A DNA stretch of 64,000 nt from an uncultured Gammaproteobacteria bacterium (GCA_964485575.1 CAZAJO010000002.1:23230-87229), one strand, 5' to 3'. Shown: positions 43,829 through 64,000, counted from the stretch's first letter. Notes: generated by a model from the sequence alone, not told the origin. Translations and numbers: made by a program.

Positions 43829-44560
43829 ATGATCCGCAGAAGAATACGTTCCTCAAGACTATCAAGAACTAGTGAAAAGCAAAATAAAAGACAAGCTCTT
43901 TTGTTCACGATTGGTATTGTCGTTCTCCTCGTGATTCTAATTCAGTTTGGACCAATCCTAATAAACATTTTTGGCAATGTTGTATATACTCTTCGAGGTG
44001 GAGACAAGAGTGATACACAAGTGGTAGGACAAGAGCTACTTCAACCACCAATCCTTATTGGGGTTGCCGAGGCAACTCAAAGTGCAACAATCTCCTTTAG
44101 CGGTGTCGCACCGGACAAAAGTGGAACAGTCGAACTGTACGTGAATGATGACCTTGTGGATGAAATTGAGGTCCATAGTAAAACTGACTTTCAAATCAAT
44201 AGTTTGCCATTGAAAAAGGGCGTAAATATTGTAAAGGCTCGCTTTGTTAAAGGAGACAAGACTAGTTCATTCACTCAAGATTATCTCGTCAATTACCTCA
44301 ACGACAAACCAAAACTTGAGGTCTCTTTTCCGAATGATGGTGGAACATACACAAAAGCAGACAAAAATATTACTGTTACAGGAATGACAGACCCTGACAA
44401 CACTGTTTCTGTCAATTCATTTAGAGCAATAGTTGATACATCTGGCAAATTTTCATACCAGCTTCAATTGAACGACGGTGAGAATCAGATAACGATTGAT
44501 GCACAAAATCCTGCAGGAGGTACCACTCAGAAGCAATTGAAGGTTACTTATCAGCCTTAG
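43829..44560 (+). CDS. membrane-anchored protein with bacterial Ig-like/β-sandwich repeats
   Basis: An N-terminal basic region and TM are followed by repeats such as VELYVNDDLVDEIEV and NQITIDAQNPAGG, typical of Big-like domains. Confidence 0.4.
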   Translation: MIRRRIRSSRLSRTSEKQNKRQALLFTIGIVVLLVILIQFGPILINIFGNVVYTLRGGDKSDTQVVGQELLQPPILIGVAEATQSATISFSGVAPDKSGTVELYVNDDLVDEIEVHSKTDFQINSLPLKKGVNIVKARFVKGDKTSSFTQDYLVNYLNDKPKLEVSFPNDGGTYTKADKNITVTGMTDPDNTVSVNSFRAIVDTSGKFSYQLQLNDGENQITIDAQNPAGGTTQKQLKVTYQP

Positions 44561-45737
44561 ACCCAATACCTATTACCCTTGCCATTAAAAACCAAAATGT
44601 CAGGATAGGCGTATAAAAAAGTACGTTTGTAAATAAGCTCCCTACGATAAGTGCTATCATGGTCGGAAACAGTATAACTATTTTCTTTTTCTGATGTGTT
44701 AGTATTTCCTTTCCTAAAAGGAACCATGAGAATATATACACAATTACTCCTATGCTTCCTGTTGTCACGAAAGCAAATAGAAAACTGTTGTCGGTACCAG
44801 CATCAGCATTGCTCCATGAAGCCCCTTTTTCATTTCTGTAACCATATCTCAACTGAGCATACCGAAATGCGTTAAACCCAACTCCACCTATCGGGTTTTT
44901 TGAGATTATATCTATGGATTCTTTCACTGAATCAATCCGCTTACTTGTAGATGCTGTTCTTAAAGGATTTAGTCCTTCAACGTGAGTATCTGAGATAAGA
45001 AACAAAAAAGCAATCATAAGAAGTCCAACAAATAAAACTTGCTTAATTTTTTTTGTTATGACTGCATAGCTTACTATCCCAACAAGAAGAGAAACCAGAG
45101 CTGTTCTTGAAAATGTAAGATATATGGCAATAACAGTACAAAATGCAAGAATTATTTCTTTATAAACTGCTTCAAATTTGCCACTTCCTATGCGAGTGAA
45201 TAGATAGAAAAAAAACATGACAAAAAATACTCCGGCAAAATTAGGGTCCAGAAATGAAGAAAACATTCTGTAGAGATGGTTGTCCCAGCCGAGGTAAAAT
45301 AACTTGTAAAGATCATAGTAAAAGAAAAACTGCCAATATCCCATCAGGATGATGATTATTCCAGAAAATAACATCACAGACCCTATGCGTTTTAAAAATG
45401 AAGGACTTAGTGGAGCGACAAAAATTGATAGATAGGAAAGATACCGCAGGGGGTAAAGAATTGATTGGATGAGTTTAACGTCAGTATAGAAAAGACAATT
45501 TAATAAAAGACTTACTACACCAATGAACACAAATATTAACTGAAACCTAACAAAATTATTCTTTGGAATTTTCCTTTTTTTTATGAAATAAACCGCTGTA
45601 AGTAGGAAAATAAGCCCAACTAAAATATCTTGAGGAACCACGTAAACGTTTGTCGACAATCTTAACCTTAACAATAATCCGATGGGAAAACTAATAACAA
45701 GTAGCAACGTTAACTTTTGAATTATTTTTTCTATCAT
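44544..45737 (-). CDS. O-antigen ligase/Wzy-like polytopic membrane protein
   Basis: About 10 TM segments with a large periplasmic loop and a YLTFSRTALVSLLVG region typical of the Wzy_C family. Confidence 0.45.
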   Translation of the reverse strand: MIEKIIQKLTLLLVISFPIGLLLRLRLSTNVYVVPQDILVGLIFLLTAVYFIKKRKIPKNNFVRFQLIFVFIGVVSLLLNCLFYTDVKLIQSILYPLRYLSYLSIFVAPLSPSFLKRIGSVMLFSGIIIILMGYWQFFFYYDLYKLFYLGWDNHLYRMFSSFLDPNFAGVFFVMFFFYLFTRIGSGKFEAVYKEIILAFCTVIAIYLTFSRTALVSLLVGIVSYAVITKKIKQVLFVGLLMIAFLFLISDTHVEGLNPLRTASTSKRIDSVKESIDIISKNPIGGVGFNAFRYAQLRYGYRNEKGASWSNADAGTDNSFLFAFVTTGSIGVIVYIFSWFLLGKEILTHQKKKIVILFPTMIALIVGSLFTNVLFYTPILTFWFLMARVIGIGSKADK

Positions 45738-47290
45738 AATCTAAATAGCCAAGCATGAGTTTTTTCATTCCTATAGACAAGCTTACCCTTATCCTCAGGT
45801 TTTTCTGCGCTTTGGTATAAGACGTATTTATAATTATTGTTACCCCATTCATCGATAGTGAATGGAAAATCTACATAATACAGGTTATGTGTATTTTTCA
45901 TAAGAACGACGTCACTACCTACAATTCTTTTGATCTGAGAATTTTCGTCGTAGAAATCTCCGAATTCGAAATTAAGATGACTCATCAAAAATTCCTCTTT
46001 TGATTCTACACCTATTATTACCGGGACGTACTTAAAACTTGCAGCACCCCTGTACAACACGCTTGAGATAGCCAGAACAATGATAACGATGTTCACAAAC
46101 TTAAAAATGGGAGCATTTTTAAGTTTGATAACTGATAAATATACTAAGAGTGAATATGCGGGTAAAAATGGTGCAAGGAACCTCGCTCCTCCGGATTGGG
46201 AAGTAAAATACCATATGAGATACGTTAGAAAACAAAAAACCATAAGAAATAGATATTTTCTTAATTTAAATAACAGTCCATACAAGACAACCGGTAGAAG
46301 AATCACATAGATTGAGCTAATCGGGTCAGGTGCAAAGAGAAAAATTCCCACGAAAGTCTTTATAAAATTCGTAGGCGAGAGAAGATCTATTGTAAAGTTA
46401 CGGAGTCCAAGTTCTGAAAACAATGGAAAGAAAGGGTTACCGGTATGGAAATAAGATATAGCAAACCAAGGCAAAGGAATTGCTAGTGCAACAAAGGAAA
46501 AATTCAATGACTTTTTGATTTTTTCCCTGATTTGATCTTTTGTCAAAGTAAAGATCAATACAATAAAGACAAAAAGAGTTCCAATAGCAAGTATTTTGGT
46601 AGCTATCGCAAATCCCAAAAGAATTGCACTTATAAGCAAATTTTTTCTACTACCCTTCTTTATATATAAAGCAAATTGGTATAACGAAAAACTCTCAAAA
46701 AAAGTTCTTGATAGATCTGAGAATGCTGTAGTTGATAACCACATGATAACCGGGCTTGTATAGAAAAGTATCACAACTAGTAATGACTGGGTCCTTTTTA
46801 GATATAGCCTGGCAAGCTTAAAAAGAACGACACAAGATAAAAGCCCAAAAGTCAGGTGAATCAACTTAGCCATTGTTTCGCTCCACAGTAGCAAGGAGGA
46901 TACATAAAACATTTCTGTTAACTTCGGCATCAATGAATAATAGAAAAGATTGCCTTGAATATAGAAAATCTTTTGATTGAGAATGAATATTTTAGGTATT
47001 GTTAAGTGATACCATAATGAATCGAATGCTAACTCAGGACCGAGTGCACCAATAAGATTTACTCCCGCAAGAGTTAGAAACAAAACATACAAAAGTAAAT
47101 CTTGCTTTGATTGATATTTGATCAGAGCTCCTAAATCTAGTTTTCCAAGCTTGCTTATAGAAAGAAGCAAACCAATAAGAAAAAGCAATACAGTCAAAAG
47201 AAAAACAGGAAAGTAAGACAATTTTCCAATAAGCCCTATGAAGAGAACGCAATATGAATAAACCCCAATGAGAATTGCTATTGTTAGCAT
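45734..47290 (-). CDS. GT-C fold polytopic glycosyltransferase (ArnT/PMT-like, GT39/83-type)
   Basis: It has at least 11 TM segments. The first-loop acidic motif is GPELAFDSLWYHLTIPKIF. It is a paralog of the 48835-50661 gene (DPLDYHLRFPRIY). Confidence 0.5.
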   Translation of the reverse strand: MLTIAILIGVYSYCVLFIGLIGKLSYFPVFLLTVLLFLIGLLLSISKLGKLDLGALIKYQSKQDLLLYVLFLTLAGVNLIGALGPELAFDSLWYHLTIPKIFILNQKIFYIQGNLFYYSLMPKLTEMFYVSSLLLWSETMAKLIHLTFGLLSCVVLFKLARLYLKRTQSLLVVILFYTSPVIMWLSTTAFSDLSRTFFESFSLYQFALYIKKGSRKNLLISAILLGFAIATKILAIGTLFVFIVLIFTLTKDQIREKIKKSLNFSFVALAIPLPWFAISYFHTGNPFFPLFSELGLRNFTIDLLSPTNFIKTFVGIFLFAPDPISSIYVILLPVVLYGLLFKLRKYLFLMVFCFLTYLIWYFTSQSGGARFLAPFLPAYSLLVYLSVIKLKNAPIFKFVNIVIIVLAISSVLYRGAASFKYVPVIIGVESKEEFLMSHLNFEFGDFYDENSQIKRIVGSDVVLMKNTHNLYYVDFPFTIDEWGNNNYKYVLYQSAEKPEDKGKLVYRNEKTHAWLFRL

Positions 47291-47414
47291 AATCCCTTTC
47301 TACAAATCAGGTGGTAATAATACAGAATTATTATTATAATTGTCCAAAGAACAAACAGCCCTAGTACTTTTTTCATATCAGTATTATAACAGCTACAAAA
47401 CTGTTCAAAGCTAG

Positions 47415-48122
47415 ATGAATATAAAAACTGCAGTCATTATTCCCGTATATAACGAGGGGGATAATTTATTAATCCTTATTCCAGATATTTATAAATACAA
47501 TAAAGGTCTTACTCTTTTTGTTGTGGATGACAATTCGACTGATAAAACTGGAACGATCATAAAAAAAATGAGGGCTATGTATCCTATTTTCTATATCAAA
47601 AGGAAAAGCAAACTTGGGAGAGGGACTGCCGTGATAGAAGGCTTTAGACAGGCGTACTTGAAGGGGGGTTTTGAGATATTTGTTGAGATGGATGCAGATC
47701 TTTCCCATAATCCAGAAGAGCTAAAAGGCCTGATAGGCTCAGTGGATAACAAAACTATGGTTCTTGCTTCGCGCTATATTCCAAAAAGCAAAATTTTAGG
47801 GATATCAAAAGGTAGAAAGATAATAAGCAAAATTGTAAATGGTTTTGAAAAAAGACTCTTTGGTCTCCCTATTCATGATTATACGAATGGGTTTAGGGCA
47901 TATTCCAGAGATGCGGTTTCAGTTCTGATAGGACATAAGTATAAAAGCTCAGGATTTGCAACTATTGCAGAGTCGACATACTTACTTCACAAGAAAGGGT
48001 TCAGACTAAAAGAAAAGCCTACAATATTTATTAATAGAAGAATTGGAGGATCAAAAGCCGATCTGCATGAGATGTATATTTCATTGAGAGACCTTATCCG
48101 TGTCCGCTTTTCTAAGATATAA
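47415..48122 (+). CDS. GT2 glycosyltransferase, Dpm1-like polyprenyl-phosphate sugar synthase
   Basis: AVIIPVYNEGDNL, VVDDNSTDKTGTI, a DAD motif and ASRY fit the GT-A/Dpm1 signature. Confidence 0.6.
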   Translation: MNIKTAVIIPVYNEGDNLLILIPDIYKYNKGLTLFVVDDNSTDKTGTIIKKMRAMYPIFYIKRKSKLGRGTAVIEGFRQAYLKGGFEIFVEMDADLSHNPEELKGLIGSVDNKTMVLASRYIPKSKILGISKGRKIISKIVNGFEKRLFGLPIHDYTNGFRAYSRDAVSVLIGHKYKSSGFATIAESTYLLHKKGFRLKEKPTIFINRRIGGSKADLHEMYISLRDLIRVRFSKI

Positions 48123-48851
48123 CTTACCACGAACCAAAAATGAGTGGAAACTCATGATCATCGCATAAATAAACCCGGCTACTCCATCCTTATAACCCTT
48201 CTTGAAGAAATAATTTTGAATAAATTTTCCAGCGGGATACATTAGGATCAAGTAAAAATTAGAGTTACCACCTGTTTCCTCCAACTCAGACTCCCTCATG
48301 CTTGAATAGGTATCCACCTCTGCTATGAATTCTTTTACTGACTGATGCGGTGCATGCACCAATGGGGTAGTTAAAGTGCTTGTATTCCCATTCACACTCC
48401 ATTCTTCATGCACTTTGCCATGCCACTTCCCTGAGTCTTTTTTTGCCAGTCTCATTAATCTGACTTCTCCAACCTCGCCATGCAGAATTTTTTTACCCCA
48501 CATAAAATCAACACGTCTTAGATAAAAGCCTGAAAATTCTTTATTATTCATTTTTGACAATATCTCATCCCGCAATTTTTCACTAACGTACTCATCAGAA
48601 TCCACAAATAAAATCCAGTTTCCGTGAGCGTTGTTGAGAGCAAAATTTCTTTGATTTGAAAAATTATTGTTAAGTGGTCGACTAAATACTTTACTCGTGT
48701 AGTTCCTGGCAATGTCTAGGGTGCGATCAGTCGACTCGTCATCAATGACGATCAATTCGTCCCCGAAATTCAGCAGTTCAAGACAGTCAACTAAATGTTC
48801 TTCGTCATTATGCGTCAAGACTATAATACTTAAATTAGTTTCTGCGGCCAT
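48081..48851 (-). CDS. GT2 family glycosyltransferase
   Basis: The motifs LSIIVLTHNDEEHL, LIVIDDESTDRT and DSDE are present. Confidence 0.6.
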   Translation of the reverse strand: MAAETNLSIIVLTHNDEEHLVDCLELLNFGDELIVIDDESTDRTLDIARNYTSKVFSRPLNNNFSNQRNFALNNAHGNWILFVDSDEYVSEKLRDEILSKMNNKEFSGFYLRRVDFMWGKKILHGEVGEVRLMRLAKKDSGKWHGKVHEEWSVNGNTSTLTTPLVHAPHQSVKEFIAEVDTYSSMRESELEETGGNSNFYLILMYPAGKFIQNYFFKKGYKDGVAGFIYAMIMSFHSFLVRGKLYLRKADTDKVSQ

Positions 48852-50661
48852 ATTTAATGTTATAGAGATATTGTTTTGTGCGCAAGTCGCTTGTTATTAG
48901 GGTAACGGTATAATCTTTACAGTTGGTTATACCCAAATGCTTGCACAGCCAATCAAAATCCCCGCCTCTAACTAAAAGCTTACTGATATTTGAGGGTAAT
49001 TTAAATATATGAGTTTCTTGATTGATGAAATAGAAGACATTTTTATACTTAAAGTCAGCATAATATAATTCGTAGACACCATAATTTGTTACCGTTTCAT
49101 ATTTTTTGATATTTCTCGTAAACTGACCATTGAAATCATAGTATGAAGCTGGATCTTTTGCTAAGTTTTTTCTTAAGAAATTATCTTTATTTGCCCATCC
49201 CAATCCATATGGCAGAATAACAAGCGTATTAAATAAATAGTATAAGGCGAGGCAAGCAAACAGGATAATCAAGCCTATTTTGAAAAGATAATTCTTTATA
49301 AAATAGATCAATCCCACCGCGGCTAGTTGATAAGTCAACAACATATATGGCAAAGAGTATCTCCCACGACCAAATCCTAGTGGAAAAAACAAGACAGGAA
49401 GCATAAGCAATATTAGTAGCAAAAAGAATTTTTTGTACTTGAAGATTTCTTTTCTCTTAACAAAAAACAGCAAAAGGAGTCCAATGACGATGAAGAATCC
49501 GTATTCGAGTGTAAAGTTGAATTTTTCACTAAATCCAGCCAAAGTAAAATTTTTCATGAACATTTCTGTATGGGAATACGTTTGCGTATTTTGTCCCTGT
49601 GAAGTGTTGATGTAAAGAGGATTACCCACAAGTATAATAGCGCGAATATACCAGGGAAGAACTATAATCAATGAACTCAAACCAAACAACAAGGTTTTTT
49701 TAGCCTTATCCATTAATTTATTGTTCTTCAACAACAATATTAGAAATAGAACCGCGAACGGGTAATAAAATAAAATCCAGATTTTACTTGCCAACGCAAC
49801 TCCAAGTAACACACCGCTTAGGATTATGTTTGTTTTTTGAATTTTAGATGTTAGCAACAACACTACGGAAAGGCTGAAACAGTATAGAGCAGGAAAATCA
49901 CTGAATGCTTGAGTTCCAAGTTGAATCATTAATGGGGCACTAACAAACATCAATGCAGCTAGAGCGCTTTTTTTATTGTCATTTTTATCCAGTAAATTAA
50001 CTCTATAAAGAAGAAAGAATATAAGTATAAAAAAGCCGAAATGTACAACGTGAGTCATCAGACCATTGCTGACCACTTGGGTTAAGATATAAAAAAGTTC
50101 AGGAAGGTGAGGAACAGTAGTATAACTTTCGTCACCCAATGCCGGTATCATGATCGTGTGATTCTCAAGATAAATTCTGGGAAATCTAAGATGATAGTCC
50201 AATGGATCACCAGCTGTTTGTGGAGGCACTAATCTTAGGAATGCAATAATTATAAAAACAAAACTAAGAATTTTTATCCAATCACGATTCTTATCTATAG
50301 TAAGTTGGAATTTTACCGGCCAGCGTTTAAAAGACCAAATCGAGACAATAGTCAAAACGCCTACCAAAAGTATCATATTCAACTCAGTAAGCAGGCCAAT
50401 CAACCCCACGATAAATATTAAGATGCTTATGAATGAATACCCTAGTGCAAAGTTTATGAAATGTGAAAGCCTACTGTCGTAATTTTTTTCGAAAAAAAGC
50501 TTTGCAAGGATCCTCCCGGTCCCATACATTATGTAAAACAATAACAATACATAAATGAGAAAAAGTGTTTGTCTAAGAAAAAATTCCGGATCGAGAAATA
50601 CACCAATAAAATCCTTTTGTAAATCGTTGACAGATTCTAAGATAAGACGCAACTTTTCCAT
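48835..50661 (-). CDS. GT-C fold polytopic glycosyltransferase (ArnT/PMT-like)
   Basis: 608 aa with 12 or more TM segments. The periplasmic loop motif is TAGDPLDYHLRFPRIY. Confidence 0.5.
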   Translation of the reverse strand: MEKLRLILESVNDLQKDFIGVFLDPEFFLRQTLFLIYVLLLFYIMYGTGRILAKLFFEKNYDSRLSHFINFALGYSFISILIFIVGLIGLLTELNMILLVGVLTIVSIWSFKRWPVKFQLTIDKNRDWIKILSFVFIIIAFLRLVPPQTAGDPLDYHLRFPRIYLENHTIMIPALGDESYTTVPHLPELFYILTQVVSNGLMTHVVHFGFFILIFFLLYRVNLLDKNDNKKSALAALMFVSAPLMIQLGTQAFSDFPALYCFSLSVVLLLTSKIQKTNIILSGVLLGVALASKIWILFYYPFAVLFLILLLKNNKLMDKAKKTLLFGLSSLIIVLPWYIRAIILVGNPLYINTSQGQNTQTYSHTEMFMKNFTLAGFSEKFNFTLEYGFFIVIGLLLLFFVKRKEIFKYKKFFLLLILLMLPVLFFPLGFGRGRYSLPYMLLTYQLAAVGLIYFIKNYLFKIGLIILFACLALYYLFNTLVILPYGLGWANKDNFLRKNLAKDPASYYDFNGQFTRNIKKYETVTNYGVYELYYADFKYKNVFYFINQETHIFKLPSNISKLLVRGGDFDWLCKHLGITNCKDYTVTLITSDLRTKQYLYNIKYGRRN

Positions 50662-51359
50662 TACTTCTTTGAGGCAACTACAATAAGAGAAATTCCGAAA
50701 GGTAATCCTTTCTTAGGTTCTATCGCTTTAAGCATCGGCACAACCCAGTTGAATGACTTGACCTGAGATTTTTCAAGTTGGCCATGATTTTTACTTATGT
50801 AGTTTCTTACGATCCAGCTCAGCAAGCCTGCCATATTGAAGAATTCTAACTCTTCAACTTTAAAACCAGCATTCTTCATTTTCTCTCTCAGTTCTTCCTT
50901 CTCATATCTTCTATAATGACCAAGGCTTCTATCAAGTTCGTTATAAGCTATTCTTTTTGCTGGTACCAAAAGTACGAGCTTGCCTGAGTTCTCAAGAAGT
51001 CCATATAAATTCCTGAGTGCTTTTTCATCATTATCTATATGTTCTAAGACATTTACCCCATAAATCGATTTAAATCTGCTTTTCACTTTACTGAGATTTG
51101 AAGCTGCATTGAATAACTCTACCTTTATATTTTTGTTTTTGGCAAACTTTTTTGTTAATGAATCTATGAGCATACTGTCTATATCTGTAAGAACTAATTC
51201 TTTAAGATTTAGCATATGCTCCGAAATGTTACCCGTACCAGCTCCAATCTCCAAAGTTGGGCTTTTCAGATAAGGTTTTATTCTTGAAGCAATCCATTTA
51301 TTATAATTTTCTGCACCCTCTAGTACCTCCAATGTTTGAACTCCGATATATTTACCCAT
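50661..51359 (-). CDS. class I SAM-dependent methyltransferase
   Basis: Motif I reads LEIGAGTGNISEHM. An acidic motif II is present. Confidence 0.55.
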   Translation of the reverse strand: MGKYIGVQTLEVLEGAENYNKWIASRIKPYLKSPTLEIGAGTGNISEHMLNLKELVLTDIDSMLIDSLTKKFAKNKNIKVELFNAASNLSKVKSRFKSIYGVNVLEHIDNDEKALRNLYGLLENSGKLVLLVPAKRIAYNELDRSLGHYRRYEKEELREKMKNAGFKVEELEFFNMAGLLSWIVRNYISKNHGQLEKSQVKSFNWVVPMLKAIEPKKGLPFGISLIVVASKK

Positions 51360-56560: not shown

Positions 56561-56562
56561 AG

Positions 56563-57849
56563 CTAGGTGATTGCAATTTCCTCATTCACATTGTTAATTC
56601 GGTAAACTATTTTTCCAGTCCCCAATACATTCCATACATCACAAACGATACAATTTTTCTTGACTAGACTTTTGATTTTTTTAATGTCTAATTTTTTATA
56701 CATATTGTGATTGGTGGCGATAAATAGTATATCTGCGTCGCGAACCGCCTCATACACATCTTTCTCAATTTTCTGCTTTTCATATTCTTTAACATATGGG
56801 TCATGAAGAACTACTTCTGCTCTTTCGCGAAGAAGTGCATGTCTGACCTTAAAGCTAAGAGATTCTCTGATATCGTCAATCTCTGCTTTGAATGCCAATC
56901 CTAATATTGCTGCTTTCTTGTTCTTTAATTTCATCCTTTCCCTTACTAGTCTTATAAGAAACATCGGCATCGACTCATTTATTTTCCAACTTGTAGATAT
57001 GAGATCTGCGTATGGAAGATCTGATATTAAGAAAAAACCATCCTTAAACAGGCATGGACCCGCGGTAAGACCAGGCATAGTAAGTCCCCCTCTTTTATAT
57101 TTGTAGTTAACTAAATTCACGATCTCATAAATATCCCTGTGATAGTTGTGAGCCAAAACCATAAATTCGTTGGCTACTGCAAAATTAATATATCTATACA
57201 TATTAGTAAATAATTTTGATAATTCTGCAGAGACGCTATCTGTTAAAAGGGTTGAAATACCCAGACTCTTAAAGAATCCATCTGCTTTTTTCAGACTTTT
57301 TTTATCGTCTGCTCCTATTATCTGGGGAATAGATTTCATCTCTTCAATCGAATTGCCTTCAGATATTCTCTCTGGACAGAATGCAACAAAAAAATCTTTT
57401 CCAATCTTAAGATTCGTGTTATCCTCTATCAAAGATTGGACATATTTTGTTGTCCTGGGAGACACGGTGCTTCGAAGTATCAATGTCTGTCCTGATTTAA
57501 AAAAAGGTACAGAATTTATGATAGATTCATTTATCTGAGAGTAGACAGGATTCATATTCTCGTCAACGGGGGTACCCAATGTCAGAATAATAAAATCACT
57601 TTTTTTTATACAAGAATAATCAGTGGTTGCGAAAAAGTCTTTCCCGATATGTTTCTTGAGTAATGGTGCAGCCCCCTTTTCCATGAATGGCATTTTGCCT
57701 GCGTTAATCTTTGAGATTTTGAGAGGGTCTCTCCCTATCCCATAAACTTTTGAATTTTTTTCGTCAGCAAGAACTAAAGCGAGTGGGAAACCTACTCTAC
57801 CAATCCCAATAACTGATGTGATTATTTCTGTTCGTGTCCTGGAAGGCAT
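56563..57849 (-). CDS. nucleotide-sugar dehydrogenase (UDP-glucose/GDP-mannose dehydrogenase family)
   Basis: The N-terminal Rossmann VIGIGRVGFPLALVLA, the central catalytic Cys region AFCPERISEGN and the C-terminal UDP-binding domain are present. 428 aa. Confidence 0.65.
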   Translation of the reverse strand: MPSRTRTEIITSVIGIGRVGFPLALVLADEKNSKVYGIGRDPLKISKINAGKMPFMEKGAAPLLKKHIGKDFFATTDYSCIKKSDFIILTLGTPVDENMNPVYSQINESIINSVPFFKSGQTLILRSTVSPRTTKYVQSLIEDNTNLKIGKDFFVAFCPERISEGNSIEEMKSIPQIIGADDKKSLKKADGFFKSLGISTLLTDSVSAELSKLFTNMYRYINFAVANEFMVLAHNYHRDIYEIVNLVNYKYKRGGLTMPGLTAGPCLFKDGFFLISDLPYADLISTSWKINESMPMFLIRLVRERMKLKNKKAAILGLAFKAEIDDIRESLSFKVRHALLRERAEVVLHDPYVKEYEKQKIEKDVYEAVRDADILFIATNHNMYKKLDIKKIKSLVKKNCIVCDVWNVLGTGKIVYRINNVNEEIAIT

Positions 57850-57928: not shown

Positions 57929-59461
57929 TTAATCCAAAGCGCTAATTTGTCCTTTTGAAAAATTTAATACTTCCTTCTCATGTACGTGCAATTCGTAAAC
58001 CTGCTGATTTCCACGAAGGAAAAGTTCTTTAGCATCAAGCTTTCCAAAAACTAATTTCTTGTTATTATTGTAAAAAAGAACATGTCTAACCCCTCTCGGG
58101 ATAACAAACTTATGAACCTCATTTATTGTTTTTACATAGTGCCAATTTTGAGAGGAGTGCACAATATTTGCATGAGGCTTATCGTTGGTATCAATCGCTC
58201 CAAAAGAATAGACTTTAAAACTTTTTAATTGATATGAAACTGCTCGAAAAATCTCCGGGTCTACAATGATGATTGTTTCATCAGGTTTATACTTTTTGTA
58301 AACGAATTCTTGAAGAGAGGACATGCGCATATTATTTTTTACAATCTCAGAATAATGGAATGATTGCGAAACGTATGGCATAACATTTTGTGGGTCACGG
58401 TCACGAAAAAAAGTAATTAAGTTTGCAACAACTATAATCAAAACTAGAAATAACGCTTTCTTGCGAAAGATGCTCCTTAGCAAATAGCTGCATAGAAGAA
58501 TGCTTGCAGAGAGGTAAGCCATCTGATGTGCAGCATGATCGCTTCTAACAAAAACGTTGAACAACAACGAAGGGGTAATCCAAAAAATAAAAACCAGAAA
58601 ATATGGTTTCATGGTTGTGCCTAATAACTTTTTTGGGCTAGCTATCAACCCAAAATGTTTTACCAATGCGAGCATGAGTATGCTTGCAAATCCACAAGTA
58701 AGGTATAGTCCTTTAATAATGGTCGGAGCAATTTCAACTATCCTTTGTAACGAAACTTGGGCTACAGCATCATTCCTAGAAAAAAAGTAGACATAAGAAA
58801 AGTATTCACTTACCCCACCCACTGCAACAACAGTCGGAATAAGCCAACTAAATGAAAGAAAAATAAACCCGAATGTGCTTACCACCCTTTCTCTTGATTT
58901 AAGATAATACAACCCAAGTAGGTATAGGGGGGTCAGAAACATTGCATCCTGAGGTCTTATTCCAATAGCAAATGAGAAGACCAAGGCAAGTAAAAAGCCA
59001 TAATCTTTTTTTTCTTTTAGAATCCTAAATACAACAAGTGCAACGAGCGTTGCAGTGACAGGAAGGATTCCATATGGATTTGCAGTAATGCCAAAATAAA
59101 ATATCGTAGGCGCAGAAAGAAATATACTTGCAGCAATAAGACCGACAACTCTGTCAAACATTAATTTTCCTGCAATATAAAAAACTACTGCCCCTACTCC
59201 TGCAAAAAGAACGCTGACCAGTAAGATTGAGGTGTGGGGATCGGTTACGAAAAAGTTAAAGAATTTCCCTAACCCAATATACAAAGGATATCCTGGAGGG
59301 GATGGGGTTTTTTCTATGAAAGAATAATTTAAAATTGCTATCGTGTAGTCAGGACCATCCCAATGAGACTGAGCCTTCTCCAAAAATGGGATGCGCGAAA
59401 GAATACCTGTCAGAAATAGTAGCGCGTACAATAAATATGAATTCTTTTTTAGCCTTAGCAT
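57929..59461 (-). CDS. GT-C fold polytopic glycosyltransferase (ArnT/PMT-like)
   Basis: 510 aa with about 12 TM segments. The first periplasmic loop reads AQSHWDGPDYTIAILN. Confidence 0.5.
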   Translation of the reverse strand: MLRLKKNSYLLYALLFLTGILSRIPFLEKAQSHWDGPDYTIAILNYSFIEKTPSPPGYPLYIGLGKFFNFFVTDPHTSILLVSVLFAGVGAVVFYIAGKLMFDRVVGLIAASIFLSAPTIFYFGITANPYGILPVTATLVALVVFRILKEKKDYGFLLALVFSFAIGIRPQDAMFLTPLYLLGLYYLKSRERVVSTFGFIFLSFSWLIPTVVAVGGVSEYFSYVYFFSRNDAVAQVSLQRIVEIAPTIIKGLYLTCGFASILMLALVKHFGLIASPKKLLGTTMKPYFLVFIFWITPSLLFNVFVRSDHAAHQMAYLSASILLCSYLLRSIFRKKALFLVLIIVVANLITFFRDRDPQNVMPYVSQSFHYSEIVKNNMRMSSLQEFVYKKYKPDETIIIVDPEIFRAVSYQLKSFKVYSFGAIDTNDKPHANIVHSSQNWHYVKTINEVHKFVIPRGVRHVLFYNNNKKLVFGKLDAKELFLRGNQQVYELHVHEKEVLNFSKGQISALD

Positions 59462-59473: not shown

Positions 59474-60352
59474 TCATCGGGATATAAATTCCTTTTTGAA
59501 TTTCTTAAGATTGTCAATATTTGTGTGCAATACTTCTTTTCCAAAAAATCTCTGCGCTTTTGATGTGTCAAGCCAAGTGTATTGTCCTCTTTTTGCCTGA
59601 GTTTTCTTAAAGAAATCTTTAAAAATGACAGGCTTTACCAAATTCTTATCAATCGAAAAAACATTGGCCAAATCTACCATGAATTCGTAGTTTGAAATGA
59701 CATCACGGGAACCGATATGATAAATTCCTGTGGCTTTTTTATTAATTGCACTTTTTACACTAGCGACAGCATCATCCGAATAAGTAGGGTTAAAGTATAA
59801 ATCCGTAATTCCCTCGTGAGCTTCTTTCATTAAAAGCTTTGCAAGTGCCCTTCTTGCAAAATCGACCTTCTTTTCATAATGAGCTGAGTAAACCGATATC
59901 AATCTCAAGATAAGATTCCTGTTGCTTCCCTTAAGTACCTCCTCTTCACCATACACTTTTGTCAGGCCATAATAGTTCACAGGATTTATCTGGTCTTCCT
60001 CAAGATAGGGTCTTTCAGACATATTTCCATCAAAAACCGCGTCTGTTGAAAAATATATAAGAGGTGTTGAATTCTTGCTTGCAATTTGAGCAATTAATTT
60101 TGGTACAGAAGCGTTAAGACGAAGGGCTAACTCTTTTTCATCCTCTGCTTGGTCTTGTTTTGTAATTCCAGCGGCATATATGATGTAGTCCGCTCTATTC
60201 TTAGCAAGAAAATTTTCAATTTCAAAATCTTTAGTAAGATCTACGTCACGCCTTAAGGGCATTACTATCTCAAACGTTTCTGAAAGCAACTCAACAATCC
60301 TTGATCCTACCATACCAGATGAGCCAAAGAGAATTATTTTTGTTGATTTCAT
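59474..60352 (-). CDS. dTDP-4-dehydrorhamnose reductase-like SDR (RmlD family)
   Basis: The motif IILFGSSGMVGSRI is present. The length and motif spacing (YGLTK) fit RmlD-type reductases. Confidence 0.5.
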   Translation of the reverse strand: MKSTKIILFGSSGMVGSRIVELLSETFEIVMPLRRDVDLTKDFEIENFLAKNRADYIIYAAGITKQDQAEDEKELALRLNASVPKLIAQIASKNSTPLIYFSTDAVFDGNMSERPYLEEDQINPVNYYGLTKVYGEEEVLKGSNRNLILRLISVYSAHYEKKVDFARRALAKLLMKEAHEGITDLYFNPTYSDDAVASVKSAINKKATGIYHIGSRDVISNYEFMVDLANVFSIDKNLVKPVIFKDFFKKTQAKRGQYTWLDTSKAQRFFGKEVLHTNIDNLKKFKKEFISR

Positions 60353-60400
60353 AAAGTAAATTTACTTAAGCCCGTCAATTATATATAATGTCTCTACAAA

Positions 60401-61357
60401 ATGAAAAGGTATTTAGTGACCGGTGGCACAGGATTTATAGGGTCTGCAATCGTCAATAGACTTACAGACGAAGGCAATTTTGTAAGGGTATTTGACAATG
60501 GTTTTAGAGGATCAGGTTCAACACTTGTTGAAAATAAAAATTTAGAATTAGTTAAAGGAGATATCCGCAATCAAAAAGAAGTATCTAGTGCCTGCAAAAA
60601 TATTGATGCAATAATACACCTTGCCTATATCAATGGGACCAAATACTTTTATGAATACCCCGAGTTGGTTCTTGAAGTGGGAGTTAAAGGAATGCTGAAT
60701 GTTTTGGATGGAGCAAAGGAAAATAAAGTCAGTGAGTTATTTCTTGCCTCTAGTTCAGAAGTTTATCAATTACCCCCAATCATTCCAACCCCCGAGAACG
60801 TCCCCTTCTCAATACCTGATGCTTATAATCCAAGGTATTCTTATGCAGCTGGGAAAATCATAAGTGAACTTCTTAGCTTATATATAGGAAGAAAGATATT
60901 TAAGAAAGTTGTTATCTTCAGACCTCATAATGTGTATGGCCCAGACATGGGACATGAACATGTAATTCCGGAACTAATCACAAAAATCATAAAACTGAAT
61001 AAATCCGGAAAGGTTGATCTTCCTATACAAGGTGACGGTAAAAACACGAGAGCTTTTATTTACATTGATGATTTTGTAGATGCAGTTATGCTCTTATTGT
61101 CTAAGGGAGTGAATAATGAGACATACAATATCGGCACCGAGGAAGAAATAAACATCCTGGAATTGATCTCCTATCTGTCAAAAGTGGCTGGTGTTGATAT
61201 TAAAGTCTCAAAAACAGTACTACCAAAAGGAAGTGTTATGAGAAGATGCCCCGATACTACAAAGATCAAAAAACTTGGTTTTAGCGCAAAAACAAGTCTA
61301 AAAAAGGGTTTGCAAAAAACTTATTTATGTTACAATAAGGACCTAAACGATGAATAA
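60401..61357 (+). CDS. NAD-dependent epimerase/dehydratase (extended SDR)
   Basis: The motifs VTGGTGFIGSAIV and YAAGK (YxxxK) are present. Confidence 0.6.
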   Translation: MKRYLVTGGTGFIGSAIVNRLTDEGNFVRVFDNGFRGSGSTLVENKNLELVKGDIRNQKEVSSACKNIDAIIHLAYINGTKYFYEYPELVLEVGVKGMLNVLDGAKENKVSELFLASSSEVYQLPPIIPTPENVPFSIPDAYNPRYSYAAGKIISELLSLYIGRKIFKKVVIFRPHNVYGPDMGHEHVIPELITKIIKLNKSGKVDLPIQGDGKNTRAFIYIDDFVDAVMLLLSKGVNNETYNIGTEEEINILELISYLSKVAGVDIKVSKTVLPKGSVMRRCPDTTKIKKLGFSAKTSLKKGLQKTYLCYNKDLNDE

Positions 61358-62618
61358 AGTTAAACCAAAATTGGCGATAAACAGCGGAAAAAGTGTTGTC
61401 GTTGACAGATGCCAAAGTTGCGGTTATCAAAAACTTCATTCCATCATATTCCTTGGATATCTCCCTCCAGTTAACAATCTGATCAAAGTCGGAACAATTC
61501 CCCAAGAACAACCTAGCTATCCTGCTCAAATGCTTTACTGTAAGAAATGCCACCTCGTACAGCTTGGTCTTATCGTCGACCCAAATATTCTTTTTCCTCC
61601 CGAGTATCCCTATACAAGTAGCACCACAAAAGTGTTGAGGGATAACTTCAAACAGCTAGCCGAAGAAACAAATCAACTGATACCACTAAAAGGGGATGAT
61701 CTTGTCATAGATATCGGATCTAACGATGGTAATCTCCTCAACAATTTTAAAGAAAAGAATAAGGTTCTCGGAATAACCCCTGAAGAGATAGGTAAAATAG
61801 CTATACAAAACGGTATCCCTACCATTATCGACTACTTTACCGATAAAGTTGCTGACAAAGTCATCAAAAAATATGGAAAGGCAAAAATTATCACAGCAAC
61901 AAATGTTTTCGCCCACATTGAAGACGTGAACGAGATTATAAAAAATATCAAAAAGATTCTGGCAACTGATGGGGTATTTATTTCAGAATCTCACTATCTC
62001 CTGTCACTTATAAAAACAGTCCAATATGACACGATCTACCATGAACACCTCAGATACTACTCCCTGCACAGTCTTAAATATCTGTTGGCGATGCATGGAC
62101 TTGAAGTTTTCTATGCAAGAGAGATTCCACCACACGGTGGATCTATACGGGTCTACGCCGCAAGGGCAGGAAAGTACAAGATCAATAAGAACGTCCGTGA
62201 GATGCTGAATGTTGAAAAAAAGGTTGTCACAAGCGTCAAACAGTTTGAAGATTTCAAAGATAAGGTTGTGATGTCAAAGTTAAACCTTTATAACTTACTT
62301 AATAAAATAAAGGAGAAAGGTGGAACAATATATGGTATCGGCGCTCCTGCACGAGGGTCGACTCTTATAAGTTATGTCGGTCTGGATTCTGACATCATGC
62401 CTTGTGTTTTGGAAACAAAGGGATCTCAAAAGGTAGGTAAATACATGCCCGGAACTCTAATCCCTGTTTTTGATGAGCAAAAATTAATTTCTGATCAGCC
62501 TGAGTATGCGTTACTCTTATCTTGGCACATCACTCGGGAACTTATTCCAAAGTTAAAAGAAAAAGGATTTAAGGGAAGCTTTATTGTGCCTCTTCCAACC
62601 CCACGAATAGTTAGATGA
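61350..62618 (+). CDS. sugar C-methyltransferase (N-terminal Cys4 zinc ribbon + SAM MTase + C-terminal C-methyltransferase domain; TylCIII-like)
   Basis: The Cys pairs CQSCG...CKKCH are present. The SAM motif reads LVIDIGSNDGNLL. The architecture matches NDP-hexose C-methyltransferases. Confidence 0.55.
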   Translation: MNKVKPKLAINSGKSVVVDRCQSCGYQKLHSIIFLGYLPPVNNLIKVGTIPQEQPSYPAQMLYCKKCHLVQLGLIVDPNILFPPEYPYTSSTTKVLRDNFKQLAEETNQLIPLKGDDLVIDIGSNDGNLLNNFKEKNKVLGITPEEIGKIAIQNGIPTIIDYFTDKVADKVIKKYGKAKIITATNVFAHIEDVNEIIKNIKKILATDGVFISESHYLLSLIKTVQYDTIYHEHLRYYSLHSLKYLLAMHGLEVFYAREIPPHGGSIRVYAARAGKYKINKNVREMLNVEKKVVTSVKQFEDFKDKVVMSKLNLYNLLNKIKEKGGTIYGIGAPARGSTLISYVGLDSDIMPCVLETKGSQKVGKYMPGTLIPVFDEQKLISDQPEYALLLSWHITRELIPKLKEKGFKGSFIVPLPTPRIVR

Positions 62619-63352
62619 AACCACATTTGTTGTCTATTGTAATTCCTGTCTATAACGAGGCTGAGAATATAACGTTGACTCTTCGGAGTATTAAAAAGAA
62701 CATAAAGACCAAGCATGAAATAATTGTTGTGTACGACTCCAATAAAGACACAACGGTTCCAGTCCTCAGAAAGTTCAAAAAGAAGCAAAAAAATCTTTAT
62801 CCAACAATAAATACAATTGAGAAAGGCCCGTCTGGGGCCATAAGGACTGGCATACTTGCAGCAAAAACTCCCCTTATTCTTGTATCCATGGCTGACCTTT
62901 GTGATGATCTTACTCAAGTCGATAAAATGGTAAAACTACTTGGAAGAAAAGAGGGCATTGTGTGCCCTTCAAGATACACGAAAGGTGGACGGCAAGAACT
63001 AGATGCCCCCTTTAAAGTAGGGCTTCCCAAAGCAGCAGGTTTTTTACTTAAATTTTTTACAGGAATTCCAACCAGCGACCCAACCAACAGCTACAAACTC
63101 TATTCAAAGAAAATGCTGGATAGGTTGAATCTCAAAAGTACAATCAGCTTTAGTGTAACTCTTGAGATAGTAGTTAAGGCACATCTATTGAAAGCAAAGA
63201 TCATAGAAATACCAACGGTTTGGAAAGACAGGCAACATGGAAAAACTAATTTTCAACTGAGAAGATCAATCGTTGCTTATACACCGTGGTTTTTACTAGC
63301 ACTTTTGAGAAATAGGCTCTTTACTCTTCCGGTACCCAAAGGTTCACTTTAA
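62615..63352 (+). CDS. GT2 glycosyltransferase, Dpm1-like
   Basis: The motifs LSIVIPVYNEAEN and SMADL are present. There is a 4-nt overlap with the methyltransferase. Confidence 0.6.
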   Translation: MKPHLLSIVIPVYNEAENITLTLRSIKKNIKTKHEIIVVYDSNKDTTVPVLRKFKKKQKNLYPTINTIEKGPSGAIRTGILAAKTPLILVSMADLCDDLTQVDKMVKLLGRKEGIVCPSRYTKGGRQELDAPFKVGLPKAAGFLLKFFTGIPTSDPTNSYKLYSKKMLDRLNLKSTISFSVTLEIVVKAHLLKAKIIEIPTVWKDRQHGKTNFQLRRSIVAYTPWFLLALLRNRLFTLPVPKGSL

Positions 63353-64000
63353 TTTGTATATCTCTACGTTTTCCCTTTCCTCAAGAAACACATAATTCGT
63401 CTTTATGAAATCATAGACTTCAGGCAACCGCACCTTATTTGAAATTCCATCCACTGGCCAAGCATCCTTATCAATAAAAATATATTTTGGCTTATTTGTA
63501 GTGAGGTCTCGCACCATATCCATTCTTTTCTCCATCCGGTTTCCTATAAAGGGCAGGTCAAACTTTGTTGGATTGACTCTATCAACCAACATGTATATTG
63601 ACGGTGTATCATTGAAAAGAAAAATGTAGTCATTAACGGATGTATTTTTTGAAATGAATTTTTGGTACAAGATAATTTTTTTTGTTTGCTGTTTTGAGAT
63701 ATTGAGAAAGCCTACTTTATCAAGGTTCACAAAATGTGCGGAGAAATATGTCTTAGGATATAAGGTACTTAGTATCATTGGGTTATTAAAATATAAGATT
63801 CTTACCAGATACAACAAAAGAAGAAAGATGAATATATAAAATATTCTTGCCTTTTCTTTCACCTCAAATAATTCATTGAGAAAATACCCACTGACTATCA
63901 GATTTGCAGGTAGTGTATAGAAATAATGCCCAGACCCATGCCGGGTAAGCAAAATCGTATAGACAAGTAGTCCAAAAAAAGATATGAGCGCAAATGCATG
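63344..64000 (-). CDS. membrane protein, 5'-partial (continues past the window end); resembles the C-terminal domain of GT-C glycosyltransferases
   Basis: The track start at 63952 is a TTG. The frame stays open and hydrophobic (HAFALISFFGLLVYTI) to position 64000. Confidence 0.35.
   Translation of the reverse strand, partial: HAFALISFFGLLVYTILLTRHGSGHYFYTLPANLIVSGYFLNELFEVKEKARIFYIFIFLLLLYLVRILYFNNPMILSTLYPKTYFSAHFVNLDKVGFLNISKQQTKKIILYQKFISKNTSVNDYIFLFNDTPSIYMLVDRVNPTKFDLPFIGNRMEKRMDMVRDLTTNKPKYIFIDKDAWPVDGISNKVRLPEVYDFIKTNYVFLEERENVEIYKLK

Follow-up and report, generated by a model that had tools for sequence, protein, structure and literature searches.

A dense set of membrane glycosyltransferases and putative donor synthases, encoded at positions 44544-64000 of a 64,000-nucleotide stretch of DNA (the window) from a CPR/Levybacteria-like, uncultured bacterium with a tiny genome, is probably part of a chromosomal surface-glycan locus, in which pairs of GT2 synthases and GT-C transferases would assemble or modify a rapidly evolving extracytoplasmic glycan. 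Machinery of this kind is already known, though its density here is unusual. No experimental information on CPR surface glycans was found in the literature searched. MurT is encoded within the window, and the host envelope thus appears to be monoderm-type, with a Gram-positive-type wall.

The locus spans at least 20 kb, adjoins the ATP synthase operon, and is cut by the window end. It comprises 19 ORFs (g01 to g19) with intergenic gaps of -42 to +124 nt, and its content is as described in the first-pass annotation, apart from small corrections to the GT2 count, the length of one motif, and the sugar-tailoring set. The region had been called an island. Its G+C content is indeed below that of the flank (0.354 versus 0.396), but the mobile-element sense of the term is unsupported, as this is a conserved chromosomal region beside the ATP synthase operon. 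The family E-values of the locus genes are strong, family profiles run against all 96 window ORFs of 90 aa or more matched nothing outside these genes, and the related-genome survey proposed with the first-pass annotation found the arrangement to be syntenic in five relatives (L002 to L006); the gene density is therefore not due to chance. The genes are grouped into a g02-g01 operon with g03 divergent from it, an overlapping g07-g06-g05-g04 operon, g12 beside g11-g10 and g15-g14-g13, and g16-g17-g18 abutting g19, with roughly one Dpm1-like synthase per GT-C gene.

Among the GT-C transferases, g02 (45734-47290, minus strand; 518 aa) and g05 (48835-50661, minus strand; 608 aa) are paralogs (26% identity, E 1e-23), and the g05-family HMM matches g02 at 5e-99. 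g02 contains a DSLWYHL loop and a C-terminal soluble domain, and g05 a DPLDYHL loop and a C-terminal alpha/beta domain. A loop motif had been reported as D-x-x-YHL; it is common to both paralogs, but its true form, D-x-L-x-Y-H-L, is one residue longer and invariant across g02 and g05 orthologs. In g14 (57929-59461, minus strand; 510 aa), HWDGPDY directly follows TM1, and a soluble domain of about 150 aa forms the C terminus; across six orthologs this motif shows a single D-to-E change, and it is conserved as HWDG[PA][DE]Y. All three proteins match PMT_2 (PF13231) above its gathering score of 26.1 bits (g02, 40.4 bits, 4.6e-10; g05, 29.0 bits; g14, 31.5 bits, 2.4e-7). g09 (52573-53889, plus strand; 438 aa) is a compact GT-C-fold protein that no family model covers; its WDGWDNW loop is invariant. 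The predicted folds of g05 and g09 agree with the GT-C definition (PMC11127046), namely 7-13 TM helices in a polytopic helical core and an extracytoplasmic loop following the first core TM. ALG12, GPI-MT-I, ALG3, AftA, and PimE were among the best structural matches; AftB and AftD matched as well. AglB is a good fold match, yet the OST WWDxG motif is absent from every locus protein. PF02366 and MIR gave no match in g02, g05, g09, or g14 at E<=0.01, and their small C-terminal domains are unclassified. One or more conserved acidic residues are present in the first outer loop of g02, g05, g09, and g14. A rough positive-inside count, the sole basis for the outer location of these loops, assigns the motif loop of g09 to the outside (K/R 4 versus 16) and an N-in orientation to the TM1 that precedes the g14 motif.

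g19 is a possible further GT-C. The window holds the C-terminal 218 aa of this polytopic protein of about 521 aa (63344-64000, minus strand; frame open to the window end), and a full-length ortholog is found at L005:10730-12295. The g19 family (314 representatives) has no Pfam model; g19 itself has no Pfam match, and 1 of 41 members matches PMT_2, at 0.0083. hhalign gave 55% (E 1.2e-4) against the g05 family and 1.7% against the g09 family. One 749-aa protein joins PMT_2 with a g19-type C terminus.

Four Dpm1/DPMS-like GT2 proteins might supply the donors. These are g03 (47415-48122, plus strand; 235 aa, no TM helix; Glycos_transf_2 2.9e-24), a predicted polyprenyl-phosphate sugar synthase; g07 (51382-52074, minus strand; 230 aa; Glycos_transf_2 2.2e-32), a predicted polyprenyl-phosphate hexose synthase; its paralog g12 (55850-56560, plus strand; 236 aa; 35% identity, E 6e-44); and g18 (62615-63352, plus strand; 245 aa; Glycos_transf_2 1.5e-22). 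Pyrococcus furiosus DPMS 5mlz is the top solved relative of all four, with about 205-228 residues covered (g03, 1.4e-20, residues 2-229; g07, 7.6e-18; g12, 6.4e-15; g18, 6.3e-14). ArnC comes next for three of the four, including g03, and GtrB is also among the relatives. No match to the NCBIfam equivalogs ArnC, PpgS, AglJ, Dol-P-hexose transferase, or PgfS reaches the curated cut-off: g03 has sub-threshold matches to ArnC, PpgS, and AglJ, g07 matches AglJ (4e-38) and the haloarchaeal Dol-P-hexose transferase (1e-31), g12 gives the best score with AglJ (3.4e-40; 138 versus 325 bits), and PpgS-like matches occur in all four. Since these scores all lie far below the cut-offs, no sugar specificity can be assigned. 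The DxD motif is D-A-D in g03, g07, and g12; g18 and its orthologs have a degenerate M-A-D, in which the second Asp alone is kept. In none of the four, which end at 230-245 aa, does a sufficiently long hydrophobic segment follow the catalytic domain. DPMS-type enzymes free of TM helices exist, such as human DPM1 and mycobacterial PpgS, and the missing C-terminal TM is therefore compatible with synthase function, although it counts, like the degenerate DxD of g18, against the preferred reading. The previous count of five Dpm1-like GT2s and one extra has to be lowered to four and one, five GT2s in total instead of six. The extra protein is g04 (48081-48851, minus strand; 256 aa; Glycos_transf_2 2.8e-21), the last gene product of g07-g06-g05-g04, which is not Dpm1-like but of a second, GmaR/SunS/TarS-like type (best solved relatives GmaR, 8e-18; 5tze, 3e-10; SunS, 8.5e-9).

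The Wzy/O-antigen-ligase-like protein noticed in the first pass is g01 (44544-45737, minus strand; 397 aa), a polytopic protein with a Wzy_C match above threshold (PF04932, 4.3e-18). Its gene overlaps g02 by 4 nt, it is 69-70% identical to its orthologs, and it has no NCBIfam match and no equivalog. Six SDR, dehydrogenase, and C-methyltransferase enzymes may tailor nucleotide sugars. g11 (54763-55800, minus strand; about 343 aa) is a PseB/FnlA-like UDP-GlcNAc 4,6-dehydratase (Polysacc_synt_2 1e-98; PseB 5e-108 and FnlA 9e-93, both under equivalog cut-offs); a 427-aa ORF reaching 56046 was rejected as an over-extension, orthologs being called at 336-343 aa. In an operon with it lies g10 (53861-54772, minus strand; about 297-303 aa), an SDR-type NDP-sugar epimerase/reductase (Epimerase 4.4e-43; GalE-like below cut-off). 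g13 (56563-57849, minus strand; 428 aa) is a nucleotide-sugar 6-dehydrogenase (TIGR03026 6.9e-96, above cut-off) with UDP-ManNAc dehydrogenases as nearest equivalogs, and g15 (59474-60352, minus strand; 292 aa) an RmlD-like NDP-4-keto-sugar reductase (RmlD_sub_bind 1.4e-54; TIGR01214 6e-54, below cut-off). The g16-g17-g18 operon starts with g16 (60401-61357, plus strand; 318 aa), an NDP-sugar 4,6-dehydratase/epimerase-like SDR (Epimerase 1.7e-47; GDP_Man_Dehyd 1.9e-40; LegB/RmlB-like, below cut-off), followed by the NDP-sugar C-methyltransferase g17 (61350-62618, plus strand; 422 aa; Methyltransf_14 8.3e-40, Methyltransf_13 2.4e-14, Methyltransf_23). A class I SAM-dependent methyltransferase, g06 (50661-51359, minus strand; 232 aa; Methyltransf_23/12/25/11), is encoded between g07 and g05. 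Tailoring enzymes are thus well represented, but the set is not full as had been stated, lacking a nucleotidyltransferase and an aminotransferase. g08 (52109-52576, plus strand; 155 aa, one N-terminal TM helix) belongs to no known family (no Pfam match at E<=10); it is translationally coupled to g09, and the pair is kept in L002, L004, and L007.

The membrane transferases and the Wzy_C protein are 63-79% identical between genomes with 98.5-99% identity in AtpA/AtpD; identity is higher for precursor enzymes, at 92-97% for g12, g13, and g17 (g17, 94-97% in L005 and L006). Judged from these comparisons, fast divergence of the membrane transferases and Wzy_C together with low G+C content is a surface-glycan signature. 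In close relatives the locus extends over at least 30 kb, and beyond the window end relatives encode a YfhO-like protein, a GT2-GT-C fusion, GT4, Wzx, and another GT2. Counting the YfhO-like protein and the fusion, up to seven GT-C-type genes occur in about 30 kb. Conventional polysaccharide parts (GT4, Wzx, GT2, and the GT2-GT-C fusion) adjoin the locus in L005, L007, L011, and L019. In L005, whose g18 ortholog is 91% identical, the locus runs directly into genes for GT4, a Wzx flippase, and further GT2s, and by comparison with this relative it probably continues past position 64000 in the window's genome. This Wzx, about 5 kb beyond the point matching the window end, is the sole flippase candidate. 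Standard O-antigen machinery, named in the first pass as the finding that would overturn its reading, is thus partly present, with Wzy_C in the window and the GT4, GT2, and Wzx parts of a Wzx/Wzy pathway seen past the window end in relatives only. Neither the locus nor the L005 and L007 extensions contain a small polytopic ORF resembling GtrA/SMR. The window, together with the next 10 kb in relatives, also yielded no gene for an initiating phosphoglycosyltransferase, an LCP-type ligase, a GtrA/SMR flippase, or a nucleotidyltransferase, so that a polymer pathway with all its parts is not in evidence.

The general mechanism proposed in the first pass, with Dpm1-like enzymes providing lipid-phosphate donors for GT-Cs at the outer face, is well supported by homology, predicted fold, and gene pairing. 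Family and fold assignments, gene pairing, conservation, and fast divergence are direct results; the following steps, with their donor lipids, sugars, flipping, acceptor, and product, are our inference. Cytoplasmic enzymes (the 4,6-dehydratase, SDR epimerases/reductases, 6-dehydrogenase, C-methyltransferase, and SAM methyltransferase) would tailor nucleotide sugars, from which g03, g07, g12, and g18 would load single sugars onto polyprenyl phosphate at the inner membrane face. The lipid-phosphate sugars would then be flipped, possibly by the Wzx adjoining the locus in relatives, and four to five GT-Cs (g02, g05, g09, g14, and perhaps g19) would each use one of these putative donors to pass one kind of sugar to an acceptor at the outer face. 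The most likely acceptor is a glycopolymer with a repeat unit or backbone that the adjoining conventional parts (GT4, GT2, Wzx, and g01 as the Wzy_C protein) would make; in that case, the GT2/GT-C pairs would act as side-chain or extension modules.

Similar arrangements are known from three-component systems (PMC11127046), namely GtrA/GtrB/Gtr* of Shigella and Salmonella and ORF15/14/12 of Citrobacter youngae. There, too, a GT2-type synthase charges polyprenyl phosphate, a GT-C transfers the sugar to a glycan outside, and the genes cluster with a polysaccharide locus. However, those systems have one synthase and one GT-C, compared with four and four to five here; our synthases have neither the two TM helices at the GtrB C terminus nor the C-terminal TMs of ArnC and P. 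furiosus DPMS, the locus has no GtrA/SMR or dedicated MATE flippase, and the host is monoderm-type CPR without LPS. Monoderm precedents are Region 2 of the Streptococcus mutans SCC locus, with two GT-A/GT-C pairs (SccN/SccM and SccP/SccQ; PMC11754754), and the related GacI/GacL and lactococcal CWPS systems. Several GT-A/GT-C pairs there belong to one cell-wall polysaccharide locus, with a different side-chain sugar added by each pair, and, as here, no flippase has been identified in the locus. Unlike S. mutans SCC, our locus has twice as many pairs, Wzx- and Wzy_C-type parts in place of rhamnan/ABC-transporter backbone machinery, and tailoring enzymes, including the C-methyltransferase, that imply donors other than Glc or GlcNAc. 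Lipid A L-Ara4N modification by ArnC/ArnT differs from our locus: ArnA/B/D/E/F are absent from the locus, the GT2 matches to ArnC reach 38-60 bits versus an equivalog cut-off of 529, and lipid A is presumably lacking in this type of organism.

No feature separates glycan acceptors from protein or lipid acceptors, and it is conceivable, albeit unlikely, that the GT-Cs move monosaccharides from polyprenyl phosphate straight onto Ser/Thr residues in secreted or membrane proteins (for instance pilins, S-layer proteins, or adhesins), with g01 acting as a PglL/PilO-like O-oligosaccharyltransferase. Wzy_C proteins include O-oligosaccharyltransferases, and a Gram-positive-type wall would leave g01 without a lipid A-core acceptor, but g01 has no equivalog match. 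By analogy, the models would be actinobacterial Ppm1/Pmt (GT39), streptococcal PgfS/PgfM1, and GtrB/PgtC2, where GT2/GT-C pairs glycosylate proteins in monoderm bacteria (PMC12041528); these systems share with our locus a Dpm1-type synthase, a PMT_2-type GT-C with an acidic motif in the first outer loop, and the monoderm envelope. They have one or two transferases, in contrast to the many paralogs here. The family name PMT_2 of g02, g05, and g14, a g14 match to a TMEM260-like model just under cut-off (7.3e-5; 23.0 versus 24.2 bits), and the protein- or peptide-glycosylating nearest solved relatives of g04, GmaR and SunS, point the same way. On the other hand, neither a MIR domain nor another PMT-specific feature was found, and no gene for a target with Ser/Thr-rich disordered regions is evident, the neighboring 243-aa Ig-like protein not being Ser/Thr-rich. 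The Wzx, GT4, and GT2 neighbors fit a lipid-linked oligosaccharide or polymer, yet would also fit en-bloc O-glycosylation. The protein-O-glycosylation-like surface system suggested in the first pass is therefore possible but unsupported, its only hints being the TMEM260-like match and the O-oligosaccharyltransferases among Wzy_C proteins. Because Wzy_C, GT4, Wzx, and GT2 are conventional polysaccharide parts, a surface glycopolymer carrying decorations is no less likely a product than a glycoprotein.

Mycobacterial PpgS (Rv3631; model NF058614)/Rv3779 and the Emb/Aft/PimE set of GT-Cs serve arabinogalactan and LAM, and there, as might be the case here, the polyprenyl-phosphate sugar comes from a small GT2 without TM helices, and clustered GT-Cs build a wall glycan outside. 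By analogy with the lipomannan, lipoarabinomannan, and arabinogalactan enzymes (PimE, MptA/B, Emb, Aft) and with lumenal ALG3/9/12/6/8/10, the GT-Cs might assemble an entire CPR-lineage lipoglycan or wall glycan stepwise from polyprenyl-phosphate monosaccharides. We consider this quite improbable. The number of GT-C-type genes, the four separate donor synthases, the structural matches to ALG12, GPI-MT-I, ALG3, AftA, and PimE, the PpgS-like matches of all four synthases, and the lack of a nearby phosphoglycosyltransferase agree with it, but Wzy_C, Wzx, and GT4 speak for one or more steps of the conventional cytoplasmic and en-bloc type, fold similarity cannot separate processive or elongating from decorating enzymes, and no lipid-anchor biosynthesis gene is present. 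In comparison with the mycobacterial systems, the locus GT2s score 25-79 bits with PpgS versus a cut-off of 370, the GT-Cs are much smaller than Emb and AftD, and neither a DPPR/DprE arabinose pathway nor a mycolyl-arabinogalactan context is found. Finally, some or all GT-C-like proteins could be inactive as transferases, for example structural or scaffold proteins like PIG-U/GAB1 of the GPI transamidase, and the density of transferases thereby overstated, which the missing family models of g09 and g19 and the candidate status of g19 would allow, but which is highly improbable given acidic loop motifs that are invariant in orthologs at 30-40% identity (D151/Y155/H156 of DPLDYHL in the g05 family, D126 of WDGWDNW in the g09 family, D37 in the g19 family) and genes that sit one-to-one beside donor synthases.

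Beyond the preferred reading of a surface-glycan locus with GT2/GT-C pairs, one may speculate, with little confidence, that this Levybacteria lineage, with a genome of about 1 Mb, makes a complex, rapidly diversifying coat built almost entirely outside the membrane, from at least four different polyprenyl-phosphate monosaccharides (among them a C-methyl-branched sugar and 6-deoxy-HexNAc or uronic derivatives) and by 5-7 GT-Cs. If so, at least two of these, the g09 and g19 families, and perhaps g08 as a partner, would represent new families of glycosyltransferases. Hosts and phages would meet the cell through this coat, and a minimal-genome episymbiont would possess a bacterial equivalent of the lumenal ALG-type or the mycobacterial LAM-type pathway.

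The interval from 44544 to 64000 comprises 19 back-to-back genes, labeled g01 to g19 in window order, with intergenic gaps of -42 to +124 nt and a coding density of approximately 99%; g19 is an open frame running past the window end. In Pfam searches, the GT-C family PMT_2 scored above threshold for three polytopic proteins, g02 (518 aa), g05 (608 aa), and g14 (510 aa), the last also showing a TMEM260-like match near threshold. The same searches assigned g01 to Wzy_C and five proteins, g03, g04, g07, g12, and g18, to GT2. SDR-type nucleotide-sugar enzymes are represented by the PseB/FnlA-like g11, the RmlD-like g15, and the 4,6-dehydratase-like g16, all below equivalog cut-offs, as well as by g10, and the nucleotide-sugar 6-dehydrogenase g13 exceeds the TIGR03026 cut-off. 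A sugar C-methyltransferase (g17), a class I SAM methyltransferase (g06), and two proteins without a family match, g08 (155 aa) and g09 (438 aa), complete the set. The ORFs of g11 and g12 are over-extended, and gene calls in relatives place their true starts near 55800 and 55850, respectively. The remaining 44 kb of the window carry housekeeping genes, namely those for phosphoglucomutase, BipA, CTP synthase, PolX, MurT, GatAB, DnaE, and the ATP synthase operon. Profiles of all locus families matched no other ORF among the 96 of the window; the family content of the locus is not due to chance.

g02 and g05 are paralogs (26% identity, E 1e-23). The loop motif that the first-pass annotation had noticed in these paralogs is indeed shared, but instead of D-x-x-YHL its exact form is D-x-L-x-Y-H-L, one residue longer (DSLWYHL in g02 and DPLDYHL in g05). 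Across the g05 family its D, Y, and H never vary, and the g02 orthologs keep the entire motif unchanged. The extra 12-TM candidate of that annotation, g09, is a GT-C by its modeled structure and by the alignment of family profiles. An AlphaFold2 model built from 24 homologs reached a pLDDT of 85.4 and a pTM of 0.89, and the g09 family profile aligned with that of the g05 family over 295 columns (95.7% probability, E 8.6e-9), superposing the invariant WDGWDNW loop of g09 on the DPLDYHL loop of g05. A plain HMM built for the g05 family likewise recovered g09 (1.1e-7), and the g05 model (pLDDT 86.2) returned the same list of structural matches as the g09 model, with ArnT aligned over 409 residues. 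PDB-sequence searches with g02, g14, and the g05/g09 profiles found nothing useful. In the relative contig L005, the g19 ortholog is present at full length (521 aa); after its N-terminal TM helix comes an invariant GDINxIDEGQ loop, and its C-terminal domain is soluble. A homolog search with the 218 aa of g19 encoded in the window yielded nothing longer than a 133-aa fragment. The g19 family has no Pfam match, its profile aligned with that of the g05 family at only 55% probability, and comparison with PDB sequences gave no clear assignment; one 749-aa relative consists of a PMT_2 core joined to the same C-terminal module. Thus, the initial count of approximately five GT-Cs was fair, but not the description of four as clear: three are clear by sequence, one (g09) by structure, and g19 is a candidate. 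The GT-C loop motif would lie outside the membrane, judging by homology and a crude positive-inside count; this positive-inside/hydropathy estimate of topology was clear for g09, as expected for g14, and uninformative for g02 and g05.

The kind of GT2 enzyme proposed at first reading was correct, but the numbers were not: instead of five Dpm1-like enzymes plus one extra GT2, there are four Dpm1-like proteins, g03, g07, g12, and g18, among five GT2 proteins in total. Each of the four is 230-245 aa long and without a TM helix, and their best solved relative, over the entire catalytic domain, is the dolichol-phosphate mannose synthase of Pyrococcus furiosus (1.4e-20 to 6.3e-14). ArnC ranks second among the solved relatives for g03, g07, and g18 and matches g12 more weakly, and GtrB is also among the solved relatives of g07, g12, and g18. 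Their NCBIfam matches, AglJ, Dol-P-hexose transferase, PpgS, and ArnC, all scored far below equivalog cut-offs, and therefore the sugar cannot be assigned. In g18 (62615-63352, plus strand) and its orthologs in L005, L006, and L007, M-A-D replaces the D-A-D metal-binding motif of the other Dpm1-like enzymes, retaining the second Asp only. The fifth GT2, g04 (48081-48851, minus strand), is not Dpm1-like, and its closest solved relatives are Listeria GmaR (8e-18), a flagellin O-GlcNAc transferase, 5tze, which we take to be TarS, and the peptide S-glycosyltransferase SunS.

The gene arrangement pairs donor synthases with transferases. g03 is divergent from g02-g01; g07, g06, g05, and g04 form one overlapping operon, of which g04 is the final gene; g12 is located between the operons g11-g10 and g15-g14-g13; and g16-g17-g18, encoding the dehydratase, the C-methyltransferase, and the GT2, overlap one another and abut g19. 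In known GT-A/GT-C pairs, the GT-A enzyme loads one sugar on polyprenyl phosphate at the inner face of the membrane, the lipid is flipped, and the GT-C passes the sugar to an acceptor outside (PMC11127046, PMC11754754). In the light of this logic and of the gene pairing, we read the locus as four putative synthase/GT-C modules, to which g09, partnered by g08, would add one more GT-C. This machinery would be fed by tailored nucleotide sugars: g11/g10 would supply one of the 6-deoxy-HexNAc type, g13 a uronic acid, and g16/g17/g15 a C-methyl-branched 6-deoxy sugar. It would act on a surface glycan whose core would come from conventional GT4, GT2, Wzx, and Wzy_C parts. The analysis itself shows families, folds, conserved acidic loops, gene pairing, synteny, and the pattern of divergence; from these we infer the carrier lipid, its sugars, their flipping, and both acceptor and product. 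g08 (52109-52576, plus strand), which overlaps g09 by 4 nt, has a single N-terminal TM helix and no family match even at E<=10; the g08-g09 pair is kept in a distant Levyibacteriota locus, L007 (1428-1895 and 112-1431). g08 may serve a GT-C enzyme as an accessory subunit.

The window ends within the locus. In L005, where the g18 ortholog shares 91% identity, five further genes come after g19; they encode a YfhO-like protein of 927 aa, a 740-aa protein in which a GT2 domain is fused to a GT-C domain of the PMT_2 family, a GT4, a flippase of the Wzx type (Polysacc_synt_3), and a further GT2. L007 shows the same arrangement; the YfhO-like protein and the fusion are encoded at 12265-17267 in L005 and at 14273-19082 in L007. 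Distant CPR contigs (L011, L018, and L019) reshuffle these modules, with Wzx-GT4-GT2/GT-C fusion, a C-methyltransferase adjoining a Dpm1-like GT2, and a g05-like GT-C. The terminal 313-aa GT2 is itself fused into 854-872-aa proteins in more distant CPR contigs. Neither an initiating phosphoglycosyltransferase nor an LCP ligase was seen in the examined stretches of relatives and more distant CPR loci, and a search of the examined stretches for a small GtrA/SMR-type flippase ORF found none.

Protein O-glycosylation, suggested in the first-pass annotation, is possible: Wzy_C proteins include O-oligosaccharyltransferases, g14 is nearly TMEM260-like, and g04 resembles protein-directed glycosyltransferases. 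GT2/GT-C pairs of streptococci do glycosylate Ser/Thr-rich regions (PMC12041528). Against this reading, the GT-Cs of the locus show no MIR domain in Pfam, no target is evident, and the structural match to PMTs is no better than that to glycan- or lipid-directed GT-Cs. A glycan assembled wholly outside the membrane, in a LAM- or ALG-like manner, fits both the number of GT-Cs and the missing phosphoglycosyltransferase; however, such a reading must ignore Wzx, GT4, and Wzy_C. That the GT-C-like proteins are non-catalytic is unlikely, because their acidic loops are invariant. An OST was rejected since the WWDxG motif is absent, and an ArnT/lipid A function since the other arn genes are absent and the scores for ArnC lie far below cut-off.

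A survey of related genomes, proposed at first reading, found the locus syntenic beside the ATP synthase genes in relatives. Two aquatic-metagenome contigs and GCA_964642555.1 keep the order from these genes through the locus unchanged. A genome scan detected the locus on the 918-kb contig of a Levyibacteriota MAG, as well as in two MAGs that carry the title 'uncultured Gammaproteobacteria' but evidently belong to the same CPR lineage. Both of the closest genome records, L005 (CAZDED010000006.1) and L006 (CAZEGF010000020.1), bear the title 'uncultured Gammaproteobacteria bacterium' and are probably mislabeled, as gene content and the other relatives (Levybacteria/Levyibacteriota) point to a CPR organism; distant g05 homologs are named Levybacteria. 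Amino acid identity to orthologs is 98.5-99% for AtpA and AtpD, 92-93% for AtpG, AtpC, and the neighboring Ig-like protein, and 92-97% for g12, g13, and g17. It is 69-70% for g01, 66% for g02, 65% for g03, 70-76% for g05, 72-79% for g09, 63-72% for g14, and 66-74% for g19, so that identity falls to 63-79% for the membrane transferases between genomes with AtpA/AtpD approximately 99% identical. G+C content is 0.354 in the locus versus 0.396 in the rest of the window (1-44543; Mann-Whitney p 2.6e-5), and it is lower in soluble and membrane-protein genes alike. Such a pattern is characteristic of a resident, fast-diversifying surface-antigen locus. A mobile island was rejected, given that neither an integrase nor a flanking tRNA is present at the locus and the position beside the atp genes is conserved in relatives.

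The Ig-like protein is membrane-anchored, 243 aa long, and carries a Glucodextran_B/Ig-like domain; its gene (43829-44560, plus strand) separates the ATP synthase epsilon gene from the locus and overlaps the 3' end of g01. Elsewhere in the window, the ORF at 16582-17886 (plus strand) matches the domain 'sugar-transfer associated ATP-grasp' (PF14397, 4.9e-69) and, weakly and at its C-terminus, Zn_protease; another ATP-grasp ORF is found at 11598-12659. At 25204-27242 (plus strand), a 253-aa ORF comes after a Mur ligase resembling MurT (PF08353). The presence of MurT implies that peptidoglycan stem peptides are amidated, as they are in Gram-positive bacteria. No Pfam match at 1e-4 was obtained for three minus-strand ORFs of 346-379 aa (5897-7036, 27239-28279, and 28284-29408).

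As proposed, the locus would work like three-component Gtr-type systems, the S. mutans SccN/SccM and SccP/SccQ pairs, and PpgS/Rv3779 of mycobacteria, together with their Aft/Emb enzymes. What distinguishes it from them is that 19.5 kb hold four to five GT-Cs along with four synthases, with up to seven GT-C-type genes in approximately 30 kb in relatives, that the synthases have no membrane anchor, that no dedicated flippase is recognizable, and that g09 and perhaps g19 fall outside every family model. These differences leave the principle unchanged, and the locus would not much surprise a specialist. The compact, TM-less polyprenyl-phosphate sugar synthases and small GT-Cs of unmodeled families, such as g09 with its 438 aa, could yield new CAZy families or parts for glycoengineering.

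CPR/Patescibacteria, with their tiny genomes, apparently live attached to other cells, and their surface glycans are almost uncharacterized. The searchable literature held essentially nothing relevant on CPR surface glycosylation or on CPR and GT-C, the sole mention concerning the importance of EPS genes to a cultured Saccharibacterium (PMC10633639). The locus takes up an estimated 3% of an approximately 1-Mb genome, a size inferred from the 918-kb L007 contig, and because of this share and a divergence far above that of housekeeping genes it is a strong candidate for a host- or phage-facing surface determinant. With the underlying logic established, its value lies mainly, not in a new principle, but in a well-defined and concrete entry point to CPR surface glycosylation.
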